Below are positions 1 to 24,342 of a DNA stretch of 26,099 nucleotides, in pieces (the stretch's first letter is position 1; every line of letters starts with the position of its first letter). The notes below the pieces were generated by a model, which saw nothing but the letters and a program-made list of their open reading frames with translations, was not told where the DNA came from and made no database searches. Source of the stretch: an uncultured Thermococci archaeon. GTDB taxonomy: Archaea > Methanobacteriota_B > Thermococci > Thermococcales > Thermococcaceae. A program made the position numbers and the translations under genes. The stretch spans positions 1-26,099 of the forward strand of contig CAZAPD010000049.1 of assembly GCA_964487115.1 (NCBI GenBank), written 5' to 3'.

Positions 1-1246
1 ACACGTAGACCACGGGAAGAGTACAACTATAGGAAGACTGCTCTTCGACACTGCCAACATCCCTGAGAACATCATCAAGAAGTTCGAGGAGATGGGTGAG
101 AAGGGTAAGTCCTTCAAGTTCGCCTGGGTCATGGACAGGCTTAAGGAAGAGAGGGAGAGGGGTATTACCATTGACGTCGCCCACACCAAGTTCGAGACTC
201 CGCACAGATACATCACCATCATCGACGCCCCGGGCCACAGGGACTTCGTTAAGAACATGATCACCGGTGCCAGCCAGGCCGATGCTGCTGTCCTCATCGT
301 CGCCGCCACCGACGGTGTCATGCCCCAGACCAAGGAGCATGCCTTTCTTGCAAGGACACTTGGTATCAACTACATTATCGTTGGCGTCAACAAAATGGAC
401 ATGATTAATTATGACGAAGGAAAATTCAAGAAGGTTGCTGAGCAGGTCAAAAAGCTCCTCATGATGCTTGGCTATAAGAACTTCCCGATTATCCCAATCA
501 GCGCCTGGGAAGGCGACAACGTTGTCAAGAAGAGCGATAAGATGCCATGGTACAAGGGGCCAACACTCATCGAGGCACTCGACCAGATCCCAGAGCCGCC
601 AAAGCCAACCGACAAACCACTTAGAATCCCGATCCAAGACGTCTACTCAATTAAAGGTGTCGGTACAGTTCCAGTTGGTAGAGTTGAGACGGGCATCCTT
701 AAGGTCGGTGATGTTGTTATATTTGAGCCAGCCTCAACGATATTCCACAAGGCCATCCAGGGTGAAGTTAAGTCCATCGAGATGCATCACGAGCCACTTC
801 AAGAAGCTCTTCCGGGTGACAACATCGGATTCAACGTTAGAGGTGTTGGTAAGAACGACATAAAGAGAGGTGACGTCGCTGGCCACACCACCAACCCACC
901 AACAGTCGTCAGACCAAAGGACACCTTCAAGGCCCAGATCATCGTCCTCAACCACCCGACTGCGATAACCGTTGGCTACACACCAGTTCTCCACGCCCAC
1001 ACACTGCAGGTTGCCGTTCGCTTTGAGCAGCTCTTAGCCAAGCTCGATCCAAGAACCGGCAACATCACTGAGGAGAACCCACAGTTCATCAAGACAGGTG
1101 ACTCAGCTATCGTAGTTCTGAGACCAACCAAACCAATGGTCATCGAGCCAGTCAAAGAGATTCCACAGATGGGTAGATTCGCTATCAGAGATATGGGTCA
1201 GACTGTTGCTGCTGGTATGGTTATATCCATCCAGAAGGGCGAGTGA
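1..1246 (+). CDS. tuf: Translation elongation factor aEF-1alpha (5' end lies outside the window)
   Basis: Frame from nt 2 reads HVDHGKST (G1), then [17 protein letters not shown] and NKMD; C-terminal [15 protein letters not shown]; stop at 1244-1246. Confidence 0.99.
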
Positions 1247-1285
1247 AGCCCTTTAGCCCTTCTTTCATTTCCTTGAGGTGAGAGC

Positions 1286-1594
1286 ATGCAGAAGGCAAGG
1301 ATTAAGCTGGCGAGCACCAACATTAAGGCGCTCAATAATGTTACCGATCAGATCAAGCAAATTGCAGAGAGGACAGGAGTTAGAATGAGCGGCCCAATCC
1401 CACTCCCCACCAAGAGGATCAGGATCACAACCAGGAAGAGCCCTGACGGGGAAGGAACTGCAACCTTTGACAAGTTTGAGCTTCGCGTTCATAAAAGGCT
1501 CATCGACATTGAGGCTGACGAAAGGGCCATGAGGCAGATCATGAGGATTCGCGTTCCGGAAGATGTCACCATCGAGATCGAGCTCATCTCATGA
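1286..1594 (+). CDS. rps10: 30S ribosomal protein S10 (uS10)
   Basis: MQKARIKL...[10 protein letters not shown]...HKRLIDI; GAGGTGA RBS upstream; conserved position after tuf. Confidence 0.99.
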
Positions 1595-1605
1595 TTCTCC
1601 TATTT

Positions 1606-2010
1606 TTAATGCCGGGGTAGCCTAGCCTGGGAAGGCGCGGGCCTGGAGAGTCCGTGGGCGTCCAGCCCGCCAGGGTTCAAATCCCTGCCCCGGCGCCAAA
1701 ACCCTTCTAACGAAGTTGAATGGCGCCGAAATATTATTTGGGATTCTAAAAGGCCCACATTTTGCACATCCTCTCCAGTCCCGCCCCTTCCCAGGCTACG
1801 GCTCCTTATGCTCTGTACAGAACTCTGTACAGATTGAGCGGATGCGTCGGCAACGTAGAGGATTATGGCCTCTTTTCCACCAAGAATCGTTCTTTCCATG
1901 CTTACCTGCTTTCCTATCAAATCGGCCCATTCCTTTGGCATCCTCAAAATCGGATACACATTTCCCTTTCCGTCTCTTAGCTTTCCAATCTTTCGACCCT
2001 CTCGGCCCAT
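1606..2010 (-). CDS. Integrase N-terminal fragment Int(N), with a possible AbrB-like swapped-hairpin N-terminus; runs antisense through the tRNA
   Basis: GGTGAT RBS before the ATG at 2010; the ORF crosses the att site (WRRGRDLNPG), as expected for SSV1-type split integrases. Confidence 0.75.
   Translation of the reverse strand: MGREGRKIGKLRDGKGNVYPILRMPKEWADLIGKQVSMERTILGGKEAIILYVADASAQSVQSSVQSIRSRSLGRGGTGEDVQNVGLLESQIIFRRHSTSLEGFWRRGRDLNPGGLDAHGLSRPAPSQARLPRH
1611..1698 (+). tRNA. tRNA-Ser(GGA) with encoded CCA
   Basis: Acceptor stem GCCGGGG/CCCCGGC, anticodon stem CGGGC/GTCCG with loop CTGGAGA (GGA at 1645-1647), long variable arm, T-loop TTCAAAT, discriminator G plus CCA. Confidence 0.98.
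1643..1700 (+). repeat. Left att site, 58-bp direct repeat (3' part of tRNA-Ser starting at the anticodon loop)
   Basis: Identical to 13803-13860; the flanking bases differ on both sides. Confidence 0.97.
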
Positions 2011-2416: not shown

Positions 2417-5400
2417 CTACGTGATTTCCTCGCTTTCTACGCTCTTCTCCCCAAACAAAACGGCCGCCTGATTAACTATGGCCTCCGAAAGGGCCTTTAT
2501 CTCCTTATACGACAACCCCTTGAAGTTCTTCATCAATATCCGCTTTACTTGATTCTTTATCTTGGCCCTAACCTGCTTTCTCTTCTTCCAATCTGCCACC
2601 GTTACGTATCCATTAATCGCCTTAACTATCTCCTTTGCTATCTCTTCTATCTGGGAATAATTCTGGGCGATTTTCTCCTGAGACATTAACAAATCGTAGA
2701 ACGCCAGCTCTTCCTCGGTGAGGTTCAGCTGTTTTCCTTCTTCAATGGCCTTTCTCGTTTCCTTGGCTATCTTTATTAGTTCCTCGATAACTTCCGAGAC
2801 TTCAATCAGCTTGAGATTGTACCTGTCTATAAGCTCCTGGAGTTTTTGATATAGCGACTTATACCTGTACGGGTTTCTCCTCATCCTGACCCTTATTTGG
2901 TCCTCAAGGATTTTGGCCAAAACGTCCGCAACATAGTTTTTATATTCAAGTCTCGCCAGCTCCTGCAAAAATTCATCACTAAGAAGGGACACATCGGGCT
3001 TTTCCCTCTTCATCAACTCAAAAACATCAATCGGATTCTCGGCCGCTATGCTCTTTGAAATAAGCTCCGTCATATCTTTTTCTATGTCCTTAACAAGGGC
3101 CTTTCCCTTTCTCGTCTGGTACTTAACAACCATGTTCTTTATCATGTTGAAGAACGCCAAATCGTCCTTAATCTTTACGGTCTCCGGGTGTGGACTCACC
3201 AATGCGTACAGCTTCTTTAGAGCTACCACGTTCTTAACGAACTTCTTTTTCGTCTCTTCATCTGTACTAACCCTCGCATAGGCCTTTGCCGTTAGTATTG
3301 CCAAATCCCTCTCACTTAGCTTTCTCCAGTTCTTGTAATCCAATCCATAGAAATAGGAAGAGACTATATCGTACTTCTCCCTCATCAAATCCAGTATCCT
3401 ATTTATATCGGTCAGTACCTTCTTGGCTTCTTCCGGTGCATACACTGAGAGGGACTTTTTCAGGTCGTCGGCTATTCCTATATAATCAACTATCAACCCA
3501 CCCGGTTTATCCTTGAATACCCTGTTCACTCTCGCTATTGCCTGAACAAGGGAATGGTTCTTCATAGGCTTATCAAAGTACATCGTGTGGAGACACGGAA
3601 CATCAAACCCAGTAAGCCACATATCAACGACAATCACCATCACCAAATCCGAATCCGGGTCCTTGAACGTCTTTGCCAGCGTCTGTAACTCCTTCTTGGT
3701 TCTGATGTGGGGCTGGAATTCCTTAGGGTCTCTTGACTTACTACCCGAGATAACAACTGCCAACGAACCAGGCCCGAACCTCTCCTCCATCGGTCCCCTA
3801 AGGCGGTTGTACAGCTCAACGGCCACTTTCCGGCTTATCGTAACCACCATGGCCTTTCCTCTGAAGTCCTCATGCCTCTTACTGAAATGTTCCACTATAT
3901 CCTGGGCTATCTTGTTAAGCCTGTCCTCCGATAAAATCAGCTTCTCCAAACGTGCAAACTTTCTCTTCAAATGTTCCCTTTGCTCCTCCTTAAGACGCGG
4001 GTCGCTTTCCCTAATGGCTCTCTCAGATATTTCCTCAAATTCCTCATCTATGAACTCGTTTGTAAGGTGCAGCCTCGCGAGCCTCGATTCGTAGTATATT
4101 GGAACCACAACTCCATGCCTTCTCGCGGTGTCCATTGAGTATATGCTGATGTAATCCCCAAAAGTCAATGGCGTTGATTTGTCGGCGTATTCAATTGGGG
4201 TAGCCGTAAACCCTAAGAATGATGCGTTTGGAAGGGCCTTCCTTAAGTTTCTCGCCAAATCCTGGTACTGACTCCTATGGGCTTCGTCCGCTATGACTAT
4301 GATATTATGCCTCTCATTCAACAGCGGATAAAACTCACTCCTCCACTTCGGCTCATACCACTCAATCGGCTCGAAATCCACAAGATAAACGGTCTTTTCT
4401 TTAAGTTTGTTCTCCGACAGCGGGTTATCTGGCCTCTTCCTGTTGAACTCCCTGATAAGGACCTCCTTAAGGTCCTCTAAACTCTTGAATCCCGTTCCCT
4501 TCACGTCCTCCTCCGAAAGCTCCTCGAACTTCTTCTCTTCCACGTATTTAATCTTGACCTCTCCAATGACAAGCTCACCAACCTGAAGGAATCCCGTATC
4601 GGCCTCCCCATTCTCTTCGTCGTCCTCTCCCCTAACGGCCCTTATGCTCACTCCCCTTCTTATCTCTCCCTCCCTTACCCTCTCAACATCCTCTTCCTGG
4701 GAAGAACTTATTATGTACCTGTCGAAATCACCGAATTTTTGAATGGTGGCGAAAACAACACCACCCGCTTTCCTGCTCAGGAGCTCCCTGAGTTCTCTAA
4801 CGCTCTCGGCCTTCTTGACGTTCTGCATCACCCCAGCGAACACACCGTATAGCTGATCGTCAAGTTCCCTCCTGTCGGTTATGAAGAGCAACATCGGGTT
4901 TTCAAGTTCCTTTGTTTTAAGGGCCTTTCTCGCATAGAACAGCATCGTTAGGGATTTCCCGCTCCCCTGGGTGTGCCATATTGTCCCTATTCTCTTCTCC
5001 TCCGGCCTTCTTCCGTACTTAACGGCCTTTACTGTCCTTTCTATGGCCTTTCTCACGGCGTAGAACTGATGGTACATCGCTATCTTCTTTGTAAAACTCC
5101 TTCCCACGCCTTCATGAATTATAAAATCGTTCAAATACTCCAAAAGCCTCTCCTTCTCGAAAAGACCCATAAGAAGAACTTCCAAACTCGTTAATGTCTT
5201 TCCCGTCTTTTTGTGCTGGTACAACGTAATCTCGTTTTCTCCCTCAACCCGAACCTCAACCCTGAGGTCATCATCGCTCTCTATCCCTTCCCATACAAAG
5301 AAACGCTCCCATGGACTGGTGGGGGAACCGTACCTCGTCTCCAGCCCATCGCTTGCAACGAGAATCTGGGCGTACTTGTAAAGCTGTGGAATGTCCTCTT

Positions 5401-5941
5401 TCTTCTTCATGTGGTCCTCGTAGGCGTCTCTCGCCGTCTGGGGAGAGTTCGGCCCCTTAAACTCAAAAACAGCAATTGGAATTCCGTTAATGAAGACCAC
5501 CATATCGGGGACCCTGTAGAGGTCCCTTTCTCTGTAAAAATCAACCCTGAACTGGTTTGAGACCAAAAACTCGTTGTTCTCTGGAACTCCAAAATCAACG
5601 AGCCTCACAATGCGCGTTCTTTCATCCTTCCCGCTTCCAACCTTCACCTTAACCCCGTTGGTGAGCATGTCGTAGAATTCCTTCATCCCCAGGGTGAACT
5701 CCCTGTGCATCACATCACTAACCGTCTTGTACACCTTGAGGGCGTCCCTCTCTGAAAGCCAGGGGTTGATTCTCATTATTGATCTTATGAACCGCTCCTT
5801 CAGGATAACGTGTTTGTACGACTCTCTTTCTTTTTCGGGCTCCAGCTCCTCCCCGGGGACGTACTCGTAGCCCATCCCTTTCAGCACTTTAACCGCCAGG
5901 TCCTCCACCATGTACTTCTCGCTCAGCTCGGCCCTATCCAT
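2417..5941 (-). CDS. hsdR: Type I restriction enzyme subunit R with an ASCH-like insertion
   Basis: Nuclease motif PDMVVFINGIPIAVFEFK, Walker A HTQGSGKS, DEAH, FTATP, MWLTGFD, QAIARVNR; GGAGGAAGG RBS region. Confidence 0.97.
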   Translation of the reverse strand: MDRAELSEKYMVEDLAVKVLKGMGYEYVPGEELEPEKERESYKHVILKERFIRSIMRINPWLSERDALKVYKTVSDVMHREFTLGMKEFYDMLTNGVKVKVGSGKDERTRIVRLVDFGVPENNEFLVSNQFRVDFYRERDLYRVPDMVVFINGIPIAVFEFKGPNSPQTARDAYEDHMKKKEDIPQLYKYAQILVASDGLETRYGSPTSPWERFFVWEGIESDDDLRVEVRVEGENEITLYQHKKTGKTLTSLEVLLMGLFEKERLLEYLNDFIIHEGVGRSFTKKIAMYHQFYAVRKAIERTVKAVKYGRRPEEKRIGTIWHTQGSGKSLTMLFYARKALKTKELENPMLLFITDRRELDDQLYGVFAGVMQNVKKAESVRELRELLSRKAGGVVFATIQKFGDFDRYIISSSQEEDVERVREGEIRRGVSIRAVRGEDDEENGEADTGFLQVGELVIGEVKIKYVEEKKFEELSEEDVKGTGFKSLEDLKEVLIREFNRKRPDNPLSENKLKEKTVYLVDFEPIEWYEPKWRSEFYPLLNERHNIIVIADEAHRSQYQDLARNLRKALPNASFLGFTATPIEYADKSTPLTFGDYISIYSMDTARRHGVVVPIYYESRLARLHLTNEFIDEEFEEISERAIRESDPRLKEEQREHLKRKFARLEKLILSEDRLNKIAQDIVEHFSKRHEDFRGKAMVVTISRKVAVELYNRLRGPMEERFGPGSLAVVISGSKSRDPKEFQPHIRTKKELQTLAKTFKDPDSDLVMVIVVDMWLTGFDVPCLHTMYFDKPMKNHSLVQAIARVNRVFKDKPGGLIVDYIGIADDLKKSLSVYAPEEAKKVLTDINRILDLMREKYDIVSSYFYGLDYKNWRKLSERDLAILTAKAYARVSTDEETKKKFVKNVVALKKLYALVSPHPETVKIKDDLAFFNMIKNMVVKYQTRKGKALVKDIEKDMTELISKSIAAENPIDVFELMKREKPDVSLLSDEFLQELARLEYKNYVADVLAKILEDQIRVRMRRNPYRYKSLYQKLQELIDRYNLKLIEVSEVIEELIKIAKETRKAIEEGKQLNLTEEELAFYDLLMSQEKIAQNYSQIEEIAKEIVKAINGYVTVADWKKRKQVRAKIKNQVKRILMKNFKGLSYKEIKALSEAIVNQAAVLFGEKSVESEEIT

Positions 5942-5974: not shown

Positions 5975-7210
5975 TCAAAGCTCCTCAACCCTCAACCTTC
6001 CGAACACCAGCTGGGGAAGGAGTGTATCGCGGACCCCCTTCAAAACCATTATTTCCTTCTCGTTGATTATTATCTTCCTGAAGAGCGGCTCAACGAGCGA
6101 GTGGAACTTTTCAAGGATGGGTTTTGGTGGGATCAGTACTGGCATTTGGGAAAAGTTCCTCTGATTTAATTTTGCTTGGACTGCACCAGTAACGTATGGC
6201 TCTATTGGAGTGAATTTCAAATGCAAATATAAATACTCAATGGAAACTCCTCTTCCGGTAATTACATGTACGTGGTTATTTGCCCAAAATTTCCCATGAA
6301 CTAATCTTGAAACTACGAGCCCCCTTTCGTCCATAACTGTCCCGTCTTCTGCTACTAACAGATAAAATCCATCAAAAATATAATCGTCAATATAGTCGAT
6401 TATGCCATTAGCTCCATAATACGGATATGGGCCTTTTCTATTTTGACGTTCTATTTCTGAAAGCGGTATTCGTTTACTATCATGGAATTCAGCAACCTCC
6501 CCAATAGGCTTAACCTCCCACCCCTTCGGAATCTCCATGTCCAGCTCCTCGCTGTAAACGAACTCCTCATCCTGGAACGGCTCAAAATCAATGAACCAGC
6601 TCTTGAATATCGCCATCGCAACCTTCTCTAAAACCTCGTTCTGCTTCCTCTTGTTCTCTATCAAATCGTCGAACCAGGAAAGGGCGGTGGCAATGCGTTG
6701 CTGTTCTTCTGGAGGGGGGTAGGGGAGTAATAAAGTCTCTAAAGCATGCCTATCAACCCTTTGTCTTCCACTTGTCCCCGTCATTGAATATTCAAGAGTA
6801 TCTTTTGGTATTGGATGCCGAAGATAATAAAAGACAAATTTTGTTGAAACCTTGTTATCTCTCGGAATCAGTGAGAAGACTTCAGTAGTAGCAATCCATC
6901 TGTAATTAGAGTTATTTGGAACAATACACATTTTCCCATGTTCAAATGATGGGGTTATCTTGGCGAATAAAATTGAACTTGGAGGCACTTCTATTCCACT
7001 CTTTACCTCATTGGGAGTCCTAAATTCGAATTCTGGAAGTATTCCGTCTACTGGTATCTTCTCCATTGGAATAAACGCTATCGGCTTGTCTTGTCTATTT
7101 TTAGGACGTTTATTTATGAACATAACTTCCTGAATCTCTTTAACGTTCCAATCCTTTGGAATCTCACCGATAGGAGTTTTCTTGAACTCGGTTTCCCATC
7201 TAAACTTCAT
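5975..7210 (-). CDS. hsdS: Type I R-M specificity subunit S
   Basis: Two TRD repeats (GEIPKDW / EIPKGW), PPPEEQQRIA, terminal RDTLLPQLVFG. Confidence 0.96.
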   Translation of the reverse strand: MKFRWETEFKKTPIGEIPKDWNVKEIQEVMFINKRPKNRQDKPIAFIPMEKIPVDGILPEFEFRTPNEVKSGIEVPPSSILFAKITPSFEHGKMCIVPNNSNYRWIATTEVFSLIPRDNKVSTKFVFYYLRHPIPKDTLEYSMTGTSGRQRVDRHALETLLLPYPPPEEQQRIATALSWFDDLIENKRKQNEVLEKVAMAIFKSWFIDFEPFQDEEFVYSEELDMEIPKGWEVKPIGEVAEFHDSKRIPLSEIERQNRKGPYPYYGANGIIDYIDDYIFDGFYLLVAEDGTVMDERGLVVSRLVHGKFWANNHVHVITGRGVSIEYLYLHLKFTPIEPYVTGAVQAKLNQRNFSQMPVLIPPKPILEKFHSLVEPLFRKIIINEKEIMVLKGVRDTLLPQLVFGRLRVEEL

Positions 7211-7715
7211 AGGGCCCCCTCTCCTTCCTGCTAATCTCTTCTACTAGCCAGTTATTAATATCAAGAAGAATCTCATATCCAACTTCCACTAGGTTTTGAT
7301 CCTTCTCAAACGAATATATTTTGTCTCCATGGAAGAGGTTGTTTCTAATCCAGTAAACAGCTTCAATAACATTTTTGTAATCTTCTAGCTCTTCCGCGGT
7401 TAGTGAGCTTCTTCCCCGGTCTCGGCGGGCATTTCTCACATTCCTGATGGGTGCAATCTCCTTTAGCCTCTGTATTTTGTCTCGGGATATCTGGTTTTGA
7501 GGAATTTCCTCTTTTATATTCTCCATAATCTTCCAGTCTCTCAGCCTATATCCATACTTCGCCCGGCATAGTGCATTAAACGCTATATACTCCACCGTAA
7601 ACTTCAGAAATGGATCATCTAACTCCTTGGCAACCTCTCGCCACTCTTTGGCCCTCTCCAGGATGAGGTCCCACGTTCGATCTTCTACTGATCCAGTTCC
7701 GGACAAGGGAATCAC
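7200..7715 (-). CDS. HEPN-domain protein (RxxxxH), putative RNase
   Basis: Helical 171-aa protein with FLKFTVEYIAFNAL and IRNNLFHGDK; overlaps both neighbours, suggesting translational coupling. Confidence 0.75.
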   Translation of the reverse strand: MIPLSGTGSVEDRTWDLILERAKEWREVAKELDDPFLKFTVEYIAFNALCRAKYGYRLRDWKIMENIKEEIPQNQISRDKIQRLKEIAPIRNVRNARRDRGRSSLTAEELEDYKNVIEAVYWIRNNLFHGDKIYSFEKDQNLVEVGYEILLDINNWLVEEISRKERGPYEV

Positions 7716-9307
7716 GCCTCCACGTACACCCGTCTTTTGATTTCCTCTATTATTGCTTTCTTTCTAAGCTTCATGAACGTTTCAATATCATTTCTCAACA
7801 ATGCATCAAGAGCCTCTCTTGGAATTAAATGTGTCCTCAAAATCTCTTCCACCTTTTCCCTTCCGAATTCCGCGATCCTCTCGGAAAAGTACTCAGACGG
7901 TCTCTTGTTACTCTTTGATTGATTTGTGGTTATTATCGTCCTGTTGGCTATCTTATCCTCTTTGTAGATACTCCTCGGAAAGATGTGGTCCACCTGTACC
8001 TTACTGCGATATAACTCAAACTGTGGAGGTTGTCCAGTCTTAAAATCCAAGGCCCCATTTAGCACTATTAAGCTCAAGACTCCCTTAAACATGGCCGAAT
8101 TCATACTTGAAACGTCCAGGTCTATGTCCTCAACCGTAAAACGCTCGATGAACTCGGGTATCTTTCCGTTTTCCACCCACTCTATGAAATCCATGAAGTC
8201 TGAGAAACTCTTTGAGTCTACGGCTTGGTCATACCTCCCCTCGAACACTGTTACCCAGTAAAATGCATCCACCTTTGCATAATTGGCAGGACTCTCCTTC
8301 CGGTTTGTCTTTAGATAGTCTAACATCACAGCTACAGGTACAATGAGCGTTGTATATGGGGCCCACTTCTTAAAGCTCAAAACCCCATAACCGTTTCTGA
8401 TATCGGTAATCCTTCGGTATGCAAGCTCTAATGCCTCACAGGCTCTCCTCCATTCCTCCTCAAAGTTTCCATGGTCCAACTCTAGCAAGTTCTTTCTCCT
8501 TGGTTCCTTTCCCCTGATAAGGGCTATTACCTTAAGTATCCACTCGGGAGGAATAAAGTTTACAAACTCATACTGTTCCTTGGCGTCGTTGAGCATATCC
8601 CTGAGGTTAATACCGTACTTGTACAGTCTCGCAGTTGCTAAATCAAACGTCGATAGTGGCATTCCCGTTTTGTTCAGCCGTTCAAAAGTCTCAACTATCT
8701 TGTCAAGGGACGTATCACTTGGGAGGGTTATCACGTGGATTTCGTATTCCATCACGCTGTTATAGAGTTTGATGAGATCTTTTATGGGGATATCCTCCCT
8801 TCCCTCGAACCTCTCAACCAAGGCCTCTAAGCTTTTGAACTCCGATACCGGGACCATGTACATATTCCTCTTTACTTCTGATAACCTCCTCTTGTCCGCT
8901 GTACTCACCCCAACTATCGCGTCGTCCCATTCTCCCTGAAGGGCCTTCTTGATGTCCACATAGAACCTGTGGGGATACTTTCTGCCATTTAAGGGGATAT
9001 CAGGCGCGTAAAAGGCGTAGAATAGGGCTGTCGTCCTCTGCTGACCGTCCAATAATACCTTCACAGAATAGTGTATCTTGGCATCAGGATTGACAGTTTC
9101 AACGCCTTCAACCAATCTCAATGCAAACGGGGCTTCGTCCCTTGTGGACTCCAAGAACAGCATAGACCCGATGAAGTATCCTCCAAAGACTGATACCAGA
9201 AGTTCCCTAACGTCTTCTGGGCCCCACACAAAGCTTCTCTGGAAATCGGGCAATACTATCTTTCCACCGTGTGTATCTTTCAACAGTTCTCTTAACTTTA
9301 TGCTCAT
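7712..9307 (-). CDS. GmrSD-family protein (DUF262 plus DUF1524/HNH-like), putative type IV modification-dependent nuclease
   Basis: LPDFQRSFVW, LLDGQQRTT, FERLNKTG (DUF262); VDHIFP...N...NQSKSNK at the C-terminus. Confidence 0.9.
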   Translation of the reverse strand: MSIKLRELLKDTHGGKIVLPDFQRSFVWGPEDVRELLVSVFGGYFIGSMLFLESTRDEAPFALRLVEGVETVNPDAKIHYSVKVLLDGQQRTTALFYAFYAPDIPLNGRKYPHRFYVDIKKALQGEWDDAIVGVSTADKRRLSEVKRNMYMVPVSEFKSLEALVERFEGREDIPIKDLIKLYNSVMEYEIHVITLPSDTSLDKIVETFERLNKTGMPLSTFDLATARLYKYGINLRDMLNDAKEQYEFVNFIPPEWILKVIALIRGKEPRRKNLLELDHGNFEEEWRRACEALELAYRRITDIRNGYGVLSFKKWAPYTTLIVPVAVMLDYLKTNRKESPANYAKVDAFYWVTVFEGRYDQAVDSKSFSDFMDFIEWVENGKIPEFIERFTVEDIDLDVSSMNSAMFKGVLSLIVLNGALDFKTGQPPQFELYRSKVQVDHIFPRSIYKEDKIANRTIITTNQSKSNKRPSEYFSERIAEFGREKVEEILRTHLIPREALDALLRNDIETFMKLRKKAIIEEIKRRVYVEA

Positions 9308-9311
9308 AACT

Positions 9312-10991
9312 TCACACCTTCCATCCCAGTTCCCTAAACACTTCCTCCACCTTTTCTCTCAGCCTCTCCTCCTCCTGGAAGAGTTTCGAAAGCTCCTCGC
9401 TGTACTCCCTCATTTTCTCTTCAAACGTCCTCTCGTCGTCGAACTCCAGCTTGACACCCACATACCTTCCAGGGGTGAGCACGTAGTTGTTCTTGGCTAT
9501 ATCTTCAATTGTGGCCACCTTTGCAAACCCTATCTCATCTATCTCGTCCAGTCTGCCTTCTTCAAAGAGCCTGAACTTCTCGACTATCCTCTGAATGTGC
9601 TCCTCAGTCATTACGTTTTGTCTTCTCGAAACCTGTTTGTAGAGGTTCTTGGCGTTTATGAAAAGTACCTTCCCCTTCATGTGCTCGGGTTTCTTCTTTC
9701 TCATAAACCACAGCGAGACGGGTAGTGAAACGTTGTAAAACAGTTTAGGCGGTGCGGCAACTATCCCATAAACGAAGTCTTTTTCCACAAGCTTCTTTCG
9801 TATCTTCCCCTCTACTCCACCCCCTGATAGGGCCCCATTGGCCATTACAAATCCCGTTTTTCCGCTGGGGTTCAGGTGATACAGGAAATGGAGTATCCAC
9901 ATGTAGTTCGCGTTGTTGTCAGGTGGAATAAGGACCTCCTCATCACTAACAATCTTGATTCTCGGGTCATCCTCGCTTATCTTATCTGCTCCCCACTTGC
10001 TATCGTTGAATGGAGGATTCGAAACCACGAAATCAAATCTATCGTGCATGAACTTGTCATCATGGTATGAATCCCCTAATCTGATGTCTCCCTCGGCCCC
10101 TCTTATGGCTAGGTTCATTTTGCATATCTTCCACGGTCCTTCTTTTGACTCCTGGCCGTATATGGCGAGTTTTGTTGGATCTACCCCTTCCCTCTCCAAT
10201 GCTGCAACGAAGAATCCACCGCTACCACATGCTGGATCAAATATTTTGCCCTCCTTCACGTCGAGGATTTCAATGATAAGTCTTGTGAGTGAACGCGGTG
10301 TGTAGAACTCCCCTCCCTTCTGGCCTTCAACTTGGGCAAATTTTCCGAGGAAGTATTCGTATATTCTCCCGAAGAGATCCCTTCCATCCTTGCCCTTCCC
10401 AAAGTCGATATCTGTAAACAGATTGATCAGATATGCCAGGTCATCCGGGGACAGGTTGATCTCAGCGTATCTTTTGGGTATGACGTCGGCCAGCTGATCG
10501 GGATACATTTCTTCAAGGGTTGAAATGGCGTTGTCTATTATCTCCCCTATGTTGGGCTGGTTGGCGTTCTTCTTGAAGTACTCCCATCTTGTTTTCTCGG
10601 GGAGATAGAAAACCCCTGCCTCTATATAATACTCCTCATCCTCAATGGCGGCCCTTCTCATCTCTGGGTCTTCGATATAATCCTCACTCGTGGGATCCCC
10701 AAATCTCTTTTCCAGTTCGGCTCTCCTTCTCTCAAAGGCCTCTGACAGGTATCTCAGGAATATAAGCCCAAGAACTATGTACTTATACTCGTGAACCTCG
10801 ACTTTCTTCCTCAGTTTGTCGGCGGCGGCCCATAACTTCCTTTCAAGCTCGGGCTCCAGTTCATAATACTCTTCAACTTTATCCTTCTTTACCTTCTCAG
10901 CCTTCGATTTCTTTTTCTTACCTTTTACCATCTTGTTCTCCCCTTTCTCCTTCTTGAATGATTGGGAAAGATATTCATCCAGCGTCGGCAT
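9312..10991 (-). CDS. hsdM: Type I R-M methyltransferase subunit M (m6A)
   Basis: LWAAADKLR, GEFYTP, DPACGSGG, NPPFN; probable start is the ATG at 10991 after GGTGG. Confidence 0.97.
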   Translation of the reverse strand: MPTLDEYLSQSFKKEKGENKMVKGKKKKSKAEKVKKDKVEEYYELEPELERKLWAAADKLRKKVEVHEYKYIVLGLIFLRYLSEAFERRRAELEKRFGDPTSEDYIEDPEMRRAAIEDEEYYIEAGVFYLPEKTRWEYFKKNANQPNIGEIIDNAISTLEEMYPDQLADVIPKRYAEINLSPDDLAYLINLFTDIDFGKGKDGRDLFGRIYEYFLGKFAQVEGQKGGEFYTPRSLTRLIIEILDVKEGKIFDPACGSGGFFVAALEREGVDPTKLAIYGQESKEGPWKICKMNLAIRGAEGDIRLGDSYHDDKFMHDRFDFVVSNPPFNDSKWGADKISEDDPRIKIVSDEEVLIPPDNNANYMWILHFLYHLNPSGKTGFVMANGALSGGGVEGKIRKKLVEKDFVYGIVAAPPKLFYNVSLPVSLWFMRKKKPEHMKGKVLFINAKNLYKQVSRRQNVMTEEHIQRIVEKFRLFEEGRLDEIDEIGFAKVATIEDIAKNNYVLTPGRYVGVKLEFDDERTFEEKMREYSEELSKLFQEEERLREKVEEVFRELGWKV

Positions 10992-11103
10992 GAATACCAC
11001 CGAGCGATTTAAGTCTGTACAGAATTGTGTTCGTCTTGCCTTATGAATTTTCCGTATTCATCCCTTTGTAAAAAAAGAAAACATGAATGTGGCCCCTATA
11101 GCT

Positions 11104-11409
11104 CTATGCAATTCCAAGCTTCGGTATCTCGATACTATCCAATTCCTTAAAGGGCCAAAGACTGGCGATATCTCCCTCCCTGTCAGAGATTATAACGCCC
11201 TCCCTAGTGAAGTTAAGGGTCTTAATTTTCCTTCCATCCTTACGGTATATCTCATAAAGAACAGTCTCAATGATTTTTTCCATGAATTGCTTATTCTCTG
11301 CTGTATAATAAAAATGTTCGTTCACGTAAACCCTTAGTATCTCAATGCCCCTCTTTCGCTCAAAGGTATCCAACTTTTCATCCAATCTATCTACCTGTTT
11401 TCCCTGCAT
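11104..11409 (-). CDS. Hypothetical protein, possibly the frameshifted C-terminus of the upstream nuclease
   Basis: 101-aa ORF overlapping the upstream ORF by 23 nt in the +1 frame. Confidence 0.5.
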   Translation of the reverse strand: MQGKQVDRLDEKLDTFERKRGIEILRVYVNEHFYYTAENKQFMEKIIETVLYEIYRKDGRKIKTLNFTREGVIISDREGDIASLWPFKELDSIEIPKLGIA

Positions 11410-12244
11410 GAAACCAGATATACACCTTCCTGAATCCTGAGCCGTATTTCAGAGCTTCAACATTCATCTTGTGTTGTAAATCCGCCTTATTTTCACAAAA
11501 GAGTGCCCATGCTATCTCTATTAGGTTTTTACTATACTTTCTTTGTTTTTTGCCTGGTATTATTCCATCGTTCACCTTGGAAAGGATAATGTCTACACCC
11601 TCATGGCTGAGGGTTACCATTAATTTTTCCGCCTGCCCTTCTACGTCATATTTACCGGAATAATGCTCCCAGAAATTTTTGAGCTCAATCGCAATAAGTG
11701 TTTTATCGCTCCAATCTATTATGAGGATGTCCGCTATCTTATCGGCATCGGATTTTCTACCTCTATTTGAGTCCTCTGTTCCTGGCCTTGTTCGTATCTT
11801 GTATATAGGAAGTACAAAGATATCCCTCCCCAGTTCCCTGTACTCTTCCAGCACTTTTTCTAAGCTCTCGTAAACAAGATCTTCTAGGAACCTCCCCTTC
11901 CAGAACGCCACTTTGCTGTGGGGAAGTTCTCCGCTGGCAATCCGCTTTGCTAGGGCTTCGTAAAATTTTCCCTCTATCTCCGAATACATGTCCAGGATAT
12001 CGTTTATGTAACCGTACATAGTTTTCTCATCTTTTATTCTCACTCCCATATCGGGCTCTGCCTGAAACGCTTCTATCATCTCCTCCGTTAGCCTTCCCTC
12101 TTTTAGCATTTCCAACATCGCATGAATGAACACATCCCAATACTCAAATACTGAATGCCTGTATCTCTTCTTAATACACTCTTCCAACTTTGCCCTACTA
12201 ATTTTTCTACCCTTATTCTCAACTAACATTAACTCCTTAACCAT
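11387..12244 (-). CDS. PD-(D/E)XK nuclease-family protein
   Basis: KGRFLEDLV...IADILII...IAIELKN pattern; GAGGTGG RBS. Confidence 0.7.
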   Translation of the reverse strand: MVKELMLVENKGRKISRAKLEECIKKRYRHSVFEYWDVFIHAMLEMLKEGRLTEEMIEAFQAEPDMGVRIKDEKTMYGYINDILDMYSEIEGKFYEALAKRIASGELPHSKVAFWKGRFLEDLVYESLEKVLEEYRELGRDIFVLPIYKIRTRPGTEDSNRGRKSDADKIADILIIDWSDKTLIAIELKNFWEHYSGKYDVEGQAEKLMVTLSHEGVDIILSKVNDGIIPGKKQRKYSKNLIEIAWALFCENKADLQHKMNVEALKYGSGFRKVYIWFHAGKTGR

Positions 12245-12948: not shown

Positions 12949-13791
12949 TCAAAAAACAACCTTATTCCCCAAGATTTCTGAGAGTGTTGGGTTTAATGAT
13001 TTTTCAAGGTACTTATACGAGCGGGCGTATTCTCTTTTAGCCTGGTTAAATAGATCTAGATAGTGGATACTCATTATCGAACCTGTTGAGTGGCCGACCA
13101 TGTATTTAACCACGCTTTCTGGAACTCTTGCTTCAAACATCTTGTTTATGAACCATTTTCGGGCGTACTTGAGGCGAACCCCTTTCCTTTTGGAGAGGTA
13201 GGAACGTAGAGTTACGTATGTGGTGTTGGGGAATGGTTTGAGGAGCGAGGCAATATAGGGGGGCATAAAAGCCACGAAGGAGTTTTTGGTTTTTCGGGTC
13301 CATGAAAGTTGATAGTATGCAATGGTGGTTCCATTCACTCTTTCTGTCTTTAAGCGATTCTCATCAAATTCTGTTACTATCTTCAACGCCTCCTTTATCC
13401 TTATACCTCCAAAAACTACCAACAACGCAACTAACAATGCGTCCTCTCTCTTGCTAACGGCCTTAATCCAACTTTGAATCTCTTCGTTCGTGGGGAAATA
13501 CAAATCCGGTTTGGACTCGTGGGTTCGTAAGAGTCTCTTCAACTTAATGGCTGTCTCCTCCAACATCCAGTCATTTTCTAGGTAGAAGTTTATCAGGTTC
13601 CTTATGGCCAAACTCAGGTGATGTCTCCCTACCTTGGTATTGTCCATCAACCTTCTCAAATCTTCAATGCTCCAGATTTCTGTATCCCCAAAATATCTAT
13701 CCAAGGAAGAGATATACTTCCTTCTTGTTTCCTCTGTTACTCTATTCTCTAGCCATTTAGTGAATTCTTCCCTAACAGGCCTGTATATCAA
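12949..13791 (-). CDS. int: Integrase C-terminal fragment Int(C), archaeal SSV1-type tyrosine recombinase
   Basis: GGIRIKE (R), RKTK (K), LKYARK (KxxR), MVGH and HY (catalytic Tyr); abuts the right att site. Confidence 0.93.
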   Translation of the reverse strand: MIYRPVREEFTKWLENRVTEETRRKYISSLDRYFGDTEIWSIEDLRRLMDNTKVGRHHLSLAIRNLINFYLENDWMLEETAIKLKRLLRTHESKPDLYFPTNEEIQSWIKAVSKREDALLVALLVVFGGIRIKEALKIVTEFDENRLKTERVNGTTIAYYQLSWTRKTKNSFVAFMPPYIASLLKPFPNTTYVTLRSYLSKRKGVRLKYARKWFINKMFEARVPESVVKYMVGHSTGSIMSIHYLDLFNQAKREYARSYKYLEKSLNPTLSEILGNKVVF

Positions 13792-13802
13792 AATTGGAGC
13801 CG

Positions 13803-13860
13803 CTGGAGAGTCCGTGGGCGTCCAGCCCGCCAGGGTTCAAATCCCTGCCCCGGCGCCAAA
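13803..13860 (+). repeat. Right att site, partial tRNA-Ser copy
   Basis: 58-bp identity to 1643-1700. Confidence 0.97.
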
Positions 13861-16479: not shown

Positions 16480-16735
16480 TTTTTCTCCCAAAGGGATATA
16501 TTTGGCAATGAGATCTCATATCTTCCTCACCCCTACCTCGTTTCCTCCATCGCCGATTCCTGTGCTGAATATTCTCAACTCTCTCGCTCTTTCAATGATC
16601 CAGTCAAAGGTTTCTCTTATTATCTTCATACCATTTCATAGAGTAACAGCTTTCGTCTAGGGCTTTTCTTGGTGTCCCAATAGCAATTATTAGGGAATAA
16701 TCAGCAATTCTTGGGTCTCTGACAAACTTGATGCT
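16480..16735 (-). pseudogene. Remnant of a DUF4392 / D-glutamate cyclase-like gene
   Basis: DYSLIIAIGTPRKALDESCYSM, then a frameshift, then ...FDWIIERARELRIFSTGIGDGGNEVG (16560-16537 encodes GIGDGGNE) and an in-frame stop. Confidence 0.75.
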
Positions 16736-18118
16736 GTCCTCCTCAAGCCTCGCCTGGTAGGCTATCTTCACAGTAAAGCCGTCCTCTATGGACTGCGTTA
16801 TGAAGTACCTGTCGAGGTAGGGCCTATAGCCGAAGGTGGCGTAGGTGTCGCGTCCTTTCTTTGCTATTGGAGTTCCTGTAAAGGCGAAGAAGGACGCGCT
16901 CTTAAGTATCGAGCGCATAGTCGAAGCAAGCTCACCATACTGGGTTCTGTGGCCTTCGTCTATGAGAACCACAACGTCCCTGCGATTCGTTATTGTCTTT
17001 CTTCTCCGGCTTTCCCTCTTGAGCCCCTCCAGCACGTCATTGAGGTCCTCGGTGCGGAACTTGTGAATGAGCGTGATGAACGTTCCCCTCTTTCCATCGG
17101 CGTGGGTTAGGACTTCCTTGAGCTTCTTGATTGAATCTATGACTTCAAAGCTCAGCCCCACAGCTTTAAGCTCGCCGCTCAGCTGTCTCTCAAGTTCCTT
17201 CCTGTCAACGACGAAGAAAATTGTGGGGTTGCCGAGCAGACGCTTGATTTTATAGGCTGAGAATATCATGGTCAGCGTCTTCCCGCTTCCCTGCCAGTGC
17301 CAGATTAAACCCCTGTTTCTTTCCGTCTCGCCCCTCGCGTAGGCCAGAGCGATGCTCACTATCTCCCTAACCGCCCGGTACTGCATGTACCTCGGCAGAA
17401 CCTTGGTAAAGGCTCCACCGCTCTCGCGGTAGAAGGTGAAGTAGCGGAGGACGTCGAGGAGGGTCTCAGGTTTTAAAAGCTCAACCAGGTTGTCCAGCTC
17501 ATCAAAGCTCTCGCCCTTCCATTGATAGACCGGAACACTGCTGAGCCACGGCACTATGGGGAAATAGACGGGTTTATCCCCGACGGCAACGCCCATCTGG
17601 ATATACTTGAAGAGCTCGGGCATCTCCTTCTCGTAGTCCTTAATCTGCTCGTATGCTTTTTTCCAGCTCACGTCCAGCCTTTTGCACTCAATGATGACCA
17701 GCGGAATGCCGTTGACGTAGAGGATTAGGTCGGGTATCTTGGTCTTAAACGGGTAGCCGACCTGGTTGGCAACGAGGAACTCGTTGCTTTGGAGGTTTTC
17801 ATAGTCAATGAGCATCAGCCTCTTGGGCTCACCGGTTTCTTCATCCTTCACGGGAACGCCGTTCTTGAGATAGTCGAGAACCCTGCGGGAGCCTTCAACG
17901 CCGAAGGGACTCGCTTTAAGGAGGTTGATTGCCTCCCCCGCTTCCTTCTCGCTAACTCTGTTTATCCTAACTATCGCATTCTTTAGCCTTGAGATTAAGA
18001 GAGGCTCGTTCTCGTTTTCGAGAACCTCGATGCCCCTCTTATACTTCCAGCCCTCCGATTCCAGCCGCTTGATGATGGGCTTCTCGCACTGGAGGTATTC
18101 GGGGGTTTGAGCAGGCAT
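16736..18118 (-). pseudogene. hsdR: Truncated type I HsdR (nuclease and first RecA domain only)
   Basis: PDLILYVNGIPLVIIECK, HWQGSGKT, DEGH and FTGTP present; motifs IV-VI and the C-terminus absent; AGGTGA RBS before the ATG at 18118. Confidence 0.92.
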
Positions 18119-18203
18119 GAGGGTCACCTGTTTATTTGTAAACATCGGAACCATCAGAGAGGTTGGATGTTTATGATTAAAACAGTTTTCGAAAATTAAA
18201 ACA

Positions 18204-19406
18204 TTAAGCTAATAACTCTGCTAAATCCCATATTAATTCCTGTAACCGCTTTAAATGAGAGGGATACTGATTAATCTTGTCATATATCTCTGAGGGGACA
18301 CATTGTTCCAGAGCGGTCATTATGTCAGTATACGGATCAGTCCTAGCCAACAGATCTTTAATGTATAAACTAGGATTCCCACTTATTTTTTGTTTGATAC
18401 AACGATCTTTTTTCTCAATTTCTCCTAACAACACTGGAAGATTCTCGAATCCGGAAGCCTCGAACAGATATGATATCTTAATTGAAGATACCTCTAGTTT
18501 CTGATGGATGACATCCCTTATCTCTCTTTCAAATCGCTCTCTTTCTTCTTCTGGGAAGATTTGGGGGAAATTCATCAGGTCGCTCTGATATGGGACAGAA
18601 ATTATTATTTTTGGATGATAAGGGGGATTAAATGAGTTCATCCATTGCTGGAGATATTGTTTCTCTGTGGTTCCTAATTGCTTGTACTCCTCGCTATTTT
18701 GGAATCCATTAATTTGTTTGCTTACAAAATCTTTGTATCCAGAGATTATTTGTCTTCCAAGAGCTATTATGTCTGTGTCCTTACCTACAAATATAACAAA
18801 GGAGGACACTCCCTTGATATCGATCCTGTAAACCTTTTGGGTTTGAGATCTGATTTTTAACTCAAAGAACATCTTAAAGAAAGATGTTGGAGGTTTGTCT
18901 AGGTTATGTTTTTTCTGGAGATATTTAGCTATTGCTTGACTGACGTTCTTTTTGTATGTCTCTGTATGTTGACCGGACAAAATACCTTCACCGGATTCCA
19001 TGACTATTACCGCTCTAGTAATTTGAGAAAATATCTCTGTCTCAATTTCCTTTAAGGTTTTAACGCCATGTCGTTCTAGAACCTCAAAGAATATCCTGAT
19101 CCTATCCGAGAATTTAGTTTTGACGAATTCAGTTATCTGCTTTTCAATTTTAAGTTCTTCGTTTTTCAGTTCATATCTCTCCCGTGATATTGCCTTCTCT
19201 ATCCAAAACGCATATGCAGAGAATCCTATAATTGATAACACAAAGAAAAGCATAGCTCTAACAGATGCTAATCCAAACCACGCAAAACTACTACCTATGA
19301 TTAAAGCAAGTATGTCTAATGTTATCAGGAGAGAGTGGACATTTCCTTTTGATATCTGGGCCAAATATTCCAGGACTTTAATAATCCCACCGTTCCAATC
19401 TATCAT
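18204..19406 (-). CDS. Hypothetical membrane protein (two N-terminal TM helices and a large soluble domain)
   Basis: Hydrophobic segments LLITLDILALIIGSSFAWFGL and AMLFFVLSIIGFSAYAFWI; GGTGGAG before the ATG at 19406. Confidence 0.75.
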   Translation of the reverse strand: MIDWNGGIIKVLEYLAQISKGNVHSLLITLDILALIIGSSFAWFGLASVRAMLFFVLSIIGFSAYAFWIEKAISRERYELKNEELKIEKQITEFVKTKFSDRIRIFFEVLERHGVKTLKEIETEIFSQITRAVIVMESGEGILSGQHTETYKKNVSQAIAKYLQKKHNLDKPPTSFFKMFFELKIRSQTQKVYRIDIKGVSSFVIFVGKDTDIIALGRQIISGYKDFVSKQINGFQNSEEYKQLGTTEKQYLQQWMNSFNPPYHPKIIISVPYQSDLMNFPQIFPEEERERFEREIRDVIHQKLEVSSIKISYLFEASGFENLPVLLGEIEKKDRCIKQKISGNPSLYIKDLLARTDPYTDIMTALEQCVPSEIYDKINQYPSHLKRLQELIWDLAELLA

Positions 19407-19430
19407 AATCTCCACCAATGTAAAACCCTG

Positions 19431-19699
19431 TGGGCGGAGGTGGGGGATTCGAACCCCCAACGTCCCTCTGGGGACGAGCAATTCCGGGCAACACTCCTCG
19501 CTCCGGGGATAAATAGTGACTCTCGCTAGTACCTCCGGCCCCAGAGGGCGAGAGCCACTTCTCCGCCCGGGAGGTCGTTGATAAATTTCAGGATTGTCTC
19601 AATCATCGCTATCACCTCCGTAATGGCTTTTATGAGGGCCCATGTAGTTGTTGGACTTGTTGCAACTGACAGAGCGAGGAGCATTGCCACCTGCCCATA
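19431..19699 (-). ncRNA. Predicted highly structured RNA with a tRNA-like 3' end and an internal small ORF
   Basis: 19-bp long-range helix with three G-U pairs, T-arm GGGGG-TTCGAAT-CCCCC, 3' ACCTCCG-C-CCA, and its own BRE/TATA. Confidence 0.65.
19526..19606 (-). CDS. 26-aa peptide MIETILKFINDLPGGEVALALWGRRY
   Basis: Full GGAGGTGAT RBS at 19611-19619, 4 nt before the ATG; an in-frame upstream ATG would give 52 aa. Confidence 0.6.
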   Translation of the reverse strand: MIETILKFINDLPGGEVALALWGRRY

Positions 19700-19725
19700 G
19701 GATAATAAGATTATAATGGGCAAAA

Positions 19726-19742
19726 GTATTTATACTTTTCGT
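19726..19742 (-). promoter_or_regulatory. BRE/TATA promoter for the structured RNA
   Basis: CGAAAAG-TATAAATA on the minus strand, inside the inverted repeat AAAAGTAT-tt-ATACTTTT (19722-19739). Confidence 0.7.
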
Positions 19743-19757
19743 TTGAGGAAGGAAAAT

Positions 19758-22633: not shown

Positions 22634-22644
22634 TATTATACCTC

Positions 22645-24330: not shown

Positions 24331-24342
24331 ACTCTCACCACC

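Follow-up and report, generated by a model that had tools for sequence, protein, structure and literature searches.

An ASCH-like domain inserted in the motor of a type I restriction subunit HsdR from Thermococcales

Domains of the PUA superfamily read modified bases in restriction enzymes. Type I enzymes are not known to judge DNA anywhere but at the HsdS/HsdM recognition site, and their motor is regarded as blind to the DNA pulled in. Here we describe an HsdR subunit whose motor is interrupted by a PUA-like domain of the ASCH family. The subunit is encoded on a 26,099-nucleotide stretch of DNA from an uncultured Thermococci archaeon (GenBank assembly GCA_964487115.1, contig CAZAPD010000049.1, positions 1 to 26,099 of the forward strand), the whole of which is referred to as the window. 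Free-standing EVE and ASCH proteins are reported to accompany archaeal type I restriction-modification systems, and an ASCH-HsdS fusion is reported in Methanohalophilus (Bell et al. 2020, PMC7641849). The systems presented in that source resemble the one in the window in that a PUA-superfamily domain is joined to an archaeal type I system, with an additional modification specificity proposed for it. However, the domain is there encoded by its own gene or fused to HsdS, whereas in the window it is an internal insertion in the first RecA-like domain (RecA1) of the HsdR motor. PUA-like readers are also reported joined to a nuclease or NTPase in the type IV EVE-HNH enzyme VcaM4I (PMC7897488), in SRA-type enzymes and in the YTH-McrB fusion of Thermococcus gammatolerans, which is reported to bind DNA containing N6-methyladenine (m6A) (PMC12707154). 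Those type IV readers are terminal fusions without a cognate methyltransferase, whereas here the domain is internal to the motor and both HsdM and HsdS are encoded, an arrangement that is not that of type IV. The HsdR of EcoR124I (PDB 2w00; complexes 7bst-7btr) belongs to the same subunit family, and its TIQK[FL] and DE[AC]H motifs align on either side of the insertion; it has about nine residues at the aligned site (389–397) where the window HsdR has 134. The literature covered, which was short on subscription journals and excluded supplements, yielded no account of an HsdR motor interrupted by ASCH or any other PUA-like domain. ASCH proteins beside archaeal type I systems and the ASCH-HsdS fusion were thus already known; an ASCH domain inside the HsdR motor appears to be new, and it is a rare arrangement.

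Free-standing archaeal ASCH proteins are reported as N4-acetylcytidine (ac4C) deacetylases (bioRxiv 10.64898/2026.02.27.708502). The GKTR-type ASCH proteins of Thermococcales and Archaeoglobus with a helix-turn-helix (HTH) described there (Pku2ASCH, Pku4ASCH and Afu3ASCH) share the fold of the insert and show clear homology to it. These relatives are basic and carry the HTH at the C-terminus, whereas the insert lacks it, lies within a helicase domain and is acidic. It also differs from them by an extra, longer alpha1 region, an acidic loop and an EKKL helix, and by the lack of the GxKxxTxR lysine and of the Asp before GF. A paralogue on contig 36 of the window's own genome would belong to the tested Pku/Afu group by its architecture, an ASCH domain followed by about 85 residues. 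Escherichia coli YqfB, an N4-acetylcytidine amidohydrolase (PDB 9kyf and 1te7), is the best structural match of a model built from the insert alone, and the insert has a Tyr at the YqfB Tyr89 column. Nonetheless, the two are 10% identical and the equivalents of YqfB Lys21 and Glu74 are not kept.

The gene and the insertion lie on the minus strand:
2417..5941, minus strand: hsdR, type I restriction subunit HsdR, 1174 amino acids (aa), from the open reading frame (ORF) and its translation
4733..4747, minus strand: TIQKF motif, aa 399–403, just upstream of the insertion, aligned with TTIQKL ending at residue 388 of EcoR124I HsdR (translation and HsdR comparison)
4331..4732, minus strand: inserted segment, aa 404–537, between TIQKF and YPLL...DEAH (translation, alignment and a Pfam ASCH match of 21.7 bits when scanned alone)
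4277..4288, minus strand: DEAH, helicase motif II, aa 552–555 (translation and HsdR alignment)

The host subunit has the full HsdR domain complement in Pfam, namely the HSDR_N nuclease (4e-44), the SWI2/SNF2-type motor (SWI2_SNF2, 1e-70, split into two stretches, with the SWI2_SNF2/ResIII motor family also matched), domain 3 (T1R_D3-like) and the C-terminal helical domain (T1RH-like_C, 1e-84), and PADLOC assigns it to REase_I (3.5e-244). Residues D146, E160 and K162 and the motifs GSGKS, DEAH, TATP and QAIARVNR can be read in the translation and are invariant in the HsdR alignment where aligned. A PD-(D/E)xK nuclease, the superfamily 2 (SF2) motor motifs I, II, III and VI, the C-terminal helical domain and an operon with hsdM and hsdS identify the protein as a type I HsdR. 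To judge from the sequences, the rest of HsdR and its HsdM and HsdS partners look intact.

The initial annotation had placed 134 residues (aa 404–537) between FATIQKF and YPLLNERHNIIVIADEAH and had quoted from them the strings VREGEIRRGVSIR, VGELVIGEVKIKYVEEKKFEELSEEDVKGTGFKSLEDLKEVL and VYLVDFE. The translation of 2417–5941 reproduces these bounds exactly, with F403 closing FATIQKF and Y538 opening YPLLNERHNIIVIADEAH, and contains all three strings. The figure of about 20 residues given there for the equivalent place in the truncated second HsdR of the window (16604–18154) agrees with our alignment, and the contrast is sharper against closer relatives. In the survey of HsdR homologues that had been proposed as a check, the window HsdR was compared with its 120 best-scoring relatives, out of 8000 scored, by the distance from [TS][IVL][QH]KF to DE[ACGS]H. 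This distance is 21–23 residues in 115 of the 121 HsdRs and 142–148 residues in six, which carry the insert. The native linker of the insert-free proteins reads TIQKFG-KRKxEE-YPxL, such that the net gain is about 127 residues, placed in a six-residue basic loop. An intein or intron was rejected in view of the in-frame segment, its conservation as protein and its ASCH fold.

The resemblance of the insert to ASCH is far beyond chance in profile and pairwise comparisons. The Pfam ASCH family (PF04266) matches the isolated insert at 21.7 bits against a gathering score of 21.2, a borderline value that covers only profile positions 42–102 (the C-terminal 60%), and reaches 19.8 bits when the whole HsdR is scanned. 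Alignment by hhalign of a profile of the six inserts with eight GKTR-type Thermococcales ASCH domains yielded a probability of 98.7% (E 1.8e-16, 73 columns), and a smaller comparison of the insert with ASCH yielded 96.6% (E 5.4e-10). By BLASTP the insert is 40% identical over 68 C-terminal aa (E 2e-10) to the ASCH protein on contig 36 of the same genome, which is itself matched by Pfam ASCH at 1e-21. A six-frame search with the insert also gave weak matches in 96 of 99 Thermococcales genomes, in small frames of ~190–250 aa. Of these, the frames looked at more closely, two of them from the window's genome, clearly encode ASCH proteins (Pfam ASCH 1e-17 to 1e-21). A phmmer search of 1.84 billion representative sequences returned a single match, a 107-aa ASCH-like protein (E 2.9e-5, 42% identity) whose score with the NCBI N4-acetylcytidine amidohydrolase model is weak, 25.6 bits, and below the cut-off. 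The insert-bearing HsdRs themselves are absent from this result, perhaps because an HsdR without the insert stands for each of their 50% clusters. The nearest ESM Atlas clusters carry ASCH, which is a lead only. A phmmer search of PDB sequences with the insert and its flanks gave no match, a mixed profile of inserts and free-standing ASCH proteins reached YqfB at E 0.65–0.91, which is not significant, and NCBIfam holds no family for the insert. The insert is thus matched both by the ASCH profile and by individual ASCH members, and its initial identification as an ASCH/PUA-like domain is backed by Pfam, BLASTP, phmmer and hhalign as well as by the fold models.

The predicted fold spans most of the insert:
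4358..4717, minus strand: predicted ASCH core, aa 409–528, comprising beta1 YIISS, alpha1, beta2 RGVS, beta3 TGFLQV, beta4, three helices and beta5 TVYLVDFEPIEW (AlphaFold, VIA-align and hhalign)

An AlphaFold model whose input alignment comprised the six inserts and no ASCH protein has a predicted local distance difference test score (pLDDT) of 76 and a predicted template modelling score (pTM) of 0.68. Comparison of this model with 48,161 PDB chains using VIA-align resulted in six top matches that are all ASCH structures, with Z scores of 5.9–7.8. YqfB (9kyf) ranks first, with a Z score of 7.8 and a root-mean-square deviation of 2.8 Å over 95 of 102 aligned residues, followed by 1t62 (Z 7.0), ZmASCH (5guq, Z 7.0), 3s9x (Z 6.9), PH0355 (2z0t, Z 6.7) and PF0470 (1xne, Z 5.9). 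YTH, PUA and EVE domains rank below, with Z scores of 3.5–4.7. The ASCH assignment is considered safe because this ranking is consistent and the sequence evidence is independent of it. An EVE, YTH or SRA identity was rejected, as such domains are outscored by ASCH in the fold search and the insert contains no Pfam match other than ASCH. When the insert was modeled within RecA1 (HsdR aa 283–660, 60-sequence alignment), pLDDT was 81–95 over most of the ASCH core, less than 50 in the entry linker (GDF) and about 61 in the exit linker. The confident core and the low-confidence linkers suggest that the domain is a separately folded unit, which appears to hang on two short linkers. Both the in-context and the insert-only predictions show ASCH-type secondary structure. 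Modeling followed by a structure search, the kind of check that the initial annotation had named for its claim, therefore returned an ASCH fold.

Insert-bearing HsdRs amount to five 90%-identity clusters among 5.8 billion sequences (P0002, P0003 from Thermococcus stetteri, P0004, P0006 and P0007). Within long HsdR frames the six-frame search located the insert in two of the 99 Thermococcales genomes, namely G072 and that of the window. Three insert loci came from a metagenome scan, one of them identical to the window. An insert-profile scan of species genomes gave 73 pattern matches, all of them unconfirmed, and no insert loci beyond those from the 99-genome search. In an HsdR tree of 108 sequences (rows of at least 950 aa, from 122, with the insert cut out), the six insert-bearing proteins form one split with a support of 100 in the Shimodaira-Hasegawa-like approximate likelihood ratio test (SH-aLRT). 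Their sister group consists of insert-free archaeal HsdRs from Methanocaldococcus and Archaeoglobus. Since the insert-bearers form one split on an insert-free tree, the data are consistent with a single acquisition of ASCH, in the TIQKF–DEAH loop of an ancestor of this small Thermococcales HsdR clade, and sequence comparison places the origin of the insert in the archaeal ASCH family. The insert evolves faster than the motor, with amino acid identities of 87%, 64% and 49% compared with 96%, 91% and 75% in the flanking RecA1. It is under purifying selection. The ratio of nonsynonymous to synonymous substitution rates (dN/dS) is 0.07 between the window and locus L015 and 0.14 between the window and G072, against ~0.03 in the flanking RecA1; dS is high, which makes the 0.14 value rough, and the most distant pair is saturated. 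The frame stays open across six inserts that are down to 45–50% identical, and 41 columns are invariant.

Three short segments bear on the ASCH active site:
4640..4657, minus strand: RGVSIR, aa 429–434, RGxS[IL][RK] in all six inserts, where R, G and S do not vary; modeled both times as strand beta2 and the probable equivalent of the KxxTxR strand
4598..4630, minus strand: acidic loop GEDDEENGEAD, aa 438–448, between beta2 and beta3 (alignments; pLDDT below 50 in the insert-only model)
4487..4501, minus strand: KGTGF, aa 481–485, with Thr483 at the Asp of the KKDGF of free-standing proteins (confident part of the hhalign result and alignment with free-standing ASCH)

The octapeptide GxKxx[T/E]xR is not kept in full across the inserts. 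Its register differs between the BLAST, MAFFT and global hhalign alignments, and in none of the four candidate registers do all six inserts share G, K, T/E and R. The Lys is found at best in three of the six, in one register, and the window protein has Arg, Ser or Ile at this place depending on the register. The acid before GF, in the confidently aligned part, is replaced by Thr in five inserts and by Met in one. The initial remark that the GxKxxTxR lysine and the acid before GF appear lost is thereby borne out. YqfB mutants of the Lys, Thr and Arg are reported to be inactive, and the turnover number of Glu74Ala is reported to be 100- to 1000-fold lower (PMC6972931). The Lys and Glu are likewise reported as essential in TthASCH, EOLA1 and TRIP4 (bioRxiv 10.64898/2026.02.27.708502). 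As neither the octapeptide Lys nor an acid at the Glu74 position is kept in the insert, deacetylation of the YqfB type is unlikely. A weak profile alignment places YqfB Glu74 (9kyf) at the Thr483 column (E 0.65, not significant).

The register in which RGxS[IL][RK] occupies the octapeptide strand is favoured because strand beta2 is predicted there in both models and because it restores the 22-residue spacing to the VxG of beta4 that is found in free-standing proteins, by count on the alignments for four of six inserts. In this register Lys would be replaced by Arg, Thr by Ser, and Arg by Arg or Lys. The ASCH pocket would then be partly kept, with RGxS[IL][RK] on the octapeptide strand, GF, and an invariant Tyr that a weak alignment places at the YqfB Tyr89 column. 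Over the confidently aligned C-terminal two thirds, the structural ASCH positions G, V, K, EL, D, GF, L and F are common to the inserts. The inserts have also gained a longer alpha1 region, an always-acidic beta2–beta3 loop, a tail that reads I[DE]WY and, ahead of beta5, an EKKL helix. The loop is not present in free-standing ASCH proteins; in four of the six inserts it is four residues shorter yet acidic.

We tentatively favour the reading that the insert senses a modified base or nucleotide without catalysis and would couple this recognition to DNA translocation or cleavage. The ASCH domain, located in a surface loop of RecA1, would bind its ligand without hydrolysis, because the catalytic Lys and acid are lost. 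On its two short linkers beside TIQKF it could sample incoming DNA or a free modified nucleotide, and ligand binding would alter the output of the motor or the nuclease. The reading draws on the role of PUA-superfamily domains as readers of modified bases in restriction enzymes, on the occurrence of ASCH and EVE proteins beside archaeal type I systems and of ASCH fused to HsdS, on the conservation of pocket-type positions and on the insertion point, which follows TIQKF. TIQKF would correspond to the strand-contacting motif Ib/Ic of SF2 helicases.

Several points weigh against this reading. Every VIA-align Z score is below 8, which is "middling" by the scale of the tool, and the models are predictions; a search of PDB chains by sequence with the six-insert profile gave chance matches, with a best E of 0.094. 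The partly kept pocket rests on a register chosen by predicted secondary structure, as the N-terminal half aligns ambiguously, and the placement of the domain relative to the DNA follows from the order of motifs rather than from coordinates. The acidity of the inserts, with net charges of -13, -9, -1, -1, -2 and -7 and isoelectric points (pI) of 4.7–6.4 compared with +5 to +11 and 9.3–9.9 for free-standing ASCH domains, argues against a general nucleic-acid-binding surface, although EOLA1, which is also acidic (pI 6.4), is reported to bind DNA oligonucleotides still (bioRxiv 10.64898/2026.02.27.708502). The reversal of charge relative to all free-standing relatives, together with a conserved acidic beta2–beta3 loop that these relatives are without, speaks instead for a regulatory or structural module that reads no base. 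Such a module might act as an acidic plug that is autoinhibitory or mimics DNA, offer a docking site to another protein such as HsdM, a further HsdR subunit or chromatin proteins, or stabilise a hyperthermophile motor. The loss of catalytic residues fits it too, as do the insert-specific invariants DTGF[IL]Q, GE after the Gly of beta4, EKKL and I[DE]WY, which have no counterpart in ASCH enzymes. However, no partner was identified and the gene in the hsdM–hsdS slot varies among the four insert-bearing loci, the insert-free majority of HsdRs includes those of archaeal hyperthermophiles (P0116 and P0109), and positions lining the YqfB pocket (the Tyr89 column, GF and the basic-x-x-Ser strand) remain conserved. 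We regard this alternative as somewhat less likely than the sensor reading and as the strongest of its rivals.

A more specific form of the sensor reading, in which the motor itself inspects modification during translocation, is doubtful. The ASCH pocket, tethered beside TIQKF, would flip out and sample bases of the DNA under translocation. At a mark foreign to the host, such as an N4-acyl or methyl group on cytosine or m6A away from the host pattern, it would stall the motor and fire the nuclease. If true, a single enzyme would combine type I with type IV restriction and act on invaders whose DNA is unmodified as well as on hypermodified ones.

The pocket could also respond allosterically to a small free ligand, a modified nucleoside or nucleotide such as N4-acylated cytidine or a methylated deoxynucleoside monophosphate released by infection, and so switch the enzyme on or off. 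ASCH enzymes are reported to act on free ac4C and N4-acylcytosines (PMC6972931), the isolated catalytic ASCH domain of Afu3ASCH is reported to give no tRNA shift in the experiments described (bioRxiv 10.64898/2026.02.27.708502), and a PUA-domain defence module is reportedly triggered by m6-dAMP (bioRxiv 10.64898/2026.01.15.699771). The acidic surface is compatible with a small ligand, but the placement beside the DNA-contacting part of the motor is left unexplained, and we consider this quite unlikely.

It is less likely still that the insert retains amidohydrolase activity and strips N4-acyl groups from cytosines in the DNA or RNA met by the motor. In favour, ac4C deacetylase activity is reported for the GKTR-type archaeal ASCH group, to which its nearest relatives belong (bioRxiv 10.64898/2026.02.27.708502). 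In one register the octapeptide Thr is a Ser, and YqfB Thr24Ser is reported to be as active as the wild type (PMC6972931); the Tyr in the weakly aligned Tyr89 column points the same way. However, the Lys, whose replacement by Ala or Leu is reported to inactivate four ASCH proteins (PMC6972931; bioRxiv 10.64898/2026.02.27.708502), is missing from the window protein and in no register present in all six inserts, and the Asp/Glu74 equivalent is Thr or Met in all six. A tolerated passenger without function fits the rarity of the insert (five clusters in 5.8 billion, two of 99 Thermococcales genomes) and its place in a surface loop on linkers predicted with low confidence, but is highly improbable given a frame open across six inserts with identities down to 45–50%, dN/dS of 0.07–0.14 and 41 invariant columns.

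A reader-type domain that sits in a motor, is under selection in a clade of hyperthermophile enzymes and travels on an integrative element would offer a simple natural test of modification-gated translocation or cleavage. It is also a case of reuse, after loss of the catalytic residues, of a fold for which ac4C eraser activity was recently reported. If its role is purely structural, the arrangement is a curiosity of domain shuffling.

The operon and the boundaries of the element that appears to carry it are as follows:
5975..7210, minus strand: hsdS (Pfam Methylase_S, two stretches)
7200..7715, minus strand: 171-aa ORF, overlapping the GmrSD-like gene at its stop and hsdS at its start (no match in Pfam, PADLOC or NCBIfam)
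7712..9307, minus strand: GmrSD-like gene, GmrSD_N/DUF262 plus HNH (Pfam GmrSD_N 6.8e-29, HNH_4 1.7e-07)
9312..11000, minus strand: hsdM, N6-adenine methyltransferase family (Pfam N6_Mtase 2e-106, HsdM_N)
12949–13791, minus strand: archaeal phage integrase gene (Pfam 2.9e-32)
1611–1698: tRNA-Ser(GGA), whose 3' half is repeated
1643..1700, plus strand: 58-nt attachment repeat, 3' half of tRNA-Ser(GGA) (repeat comparison)
13803..13860, plus strand: second, identical copy of the 58-nt repeat, adjoining the integrase gene (repeat comparison)

The genes run on the minus strand in the order hsdM, GmrSD-like gene, 171-aa ORF, hsdS and hsdR, with gaps between neighbours of -11 to +33 nt. The ~12.2 kb between the perfect 58-nt direct repeats, which include the whole ASCH-HsdR operon, look like a mobile element integrated in tRNA-Ser. 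The initial annotation had noted that sensing of modified DNA or RNA fits co-transcription with the GmrSD-like gene, an argument that is weakened by the other loci. A GmrSD-like gene lies between hsdM and hsdS in two of the four insert-bearing loci. In the three besides the window, the slot holds a GmrSD-like gene (L016), a 508-aa protein with no assignment (L015) and a 317-aa protein with a weak DUF5677 match (G072). No GmrSD match was found in G072, although it carries the insert. Conversely, of the 99 Thermococcales genomes, six besides the window's own have GmrSD-like genes but not the insert. A specific partnership between the insert and GmrSD was rejected on these counts.

Upstream of hsdM, the element also holds a 285-aa ORF (11387–12244, minus strand) and a 101-aa ORF (11104–11409, minus strand), neither with a match in Pfam, PADLOC or NCBIfam. 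The system of metagenome locus L015, which is 87–94% identical, adjoins an EF-1alpha gene, as does that of the window (92–1594), and the same integration site may have been used in this related strain. At metagenome locus L016 (12238–19225), which encodes the most divergent ASCH-HsdR, the operon is followed by a gene for a 1486-aa protein with PD-(D/E)xK and SF1-helicase (AAA_11/AAA_12) domains and, on the opposite strand, by a gene for an 845-aa Piwi-domain protein, neighbours that suggest a defence island.

The second type I system of the window (16604–25896) comprises hsdM (24343–25896), hsdS (19758–21035) and an hsdR cut to 516 aa (16604–18154), which ends within the motor. Between its hsdM and hsdS lie a 561-aa ORF (22645–24330) and a 533-aa ORF (21032–22633), both without a Pfam family; the latter has a weak PADLOC match to CARF_HEPN (E 1e-4). 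Elsewhere in Thermococcales genomes, two ASCH genes lie adjacent to one another (L011, which is contig 36 of the window's genome, 1000–2600, and L003–L010). One of the pair encodes a GKER-type protein (GxKxxExR) of 113–128 aa, and the other a GKTR-type protein of ~190 aa with a C-terminal extension, apparently the ASCH-HTH architecture reported for tRNA ac4C deacetylases.

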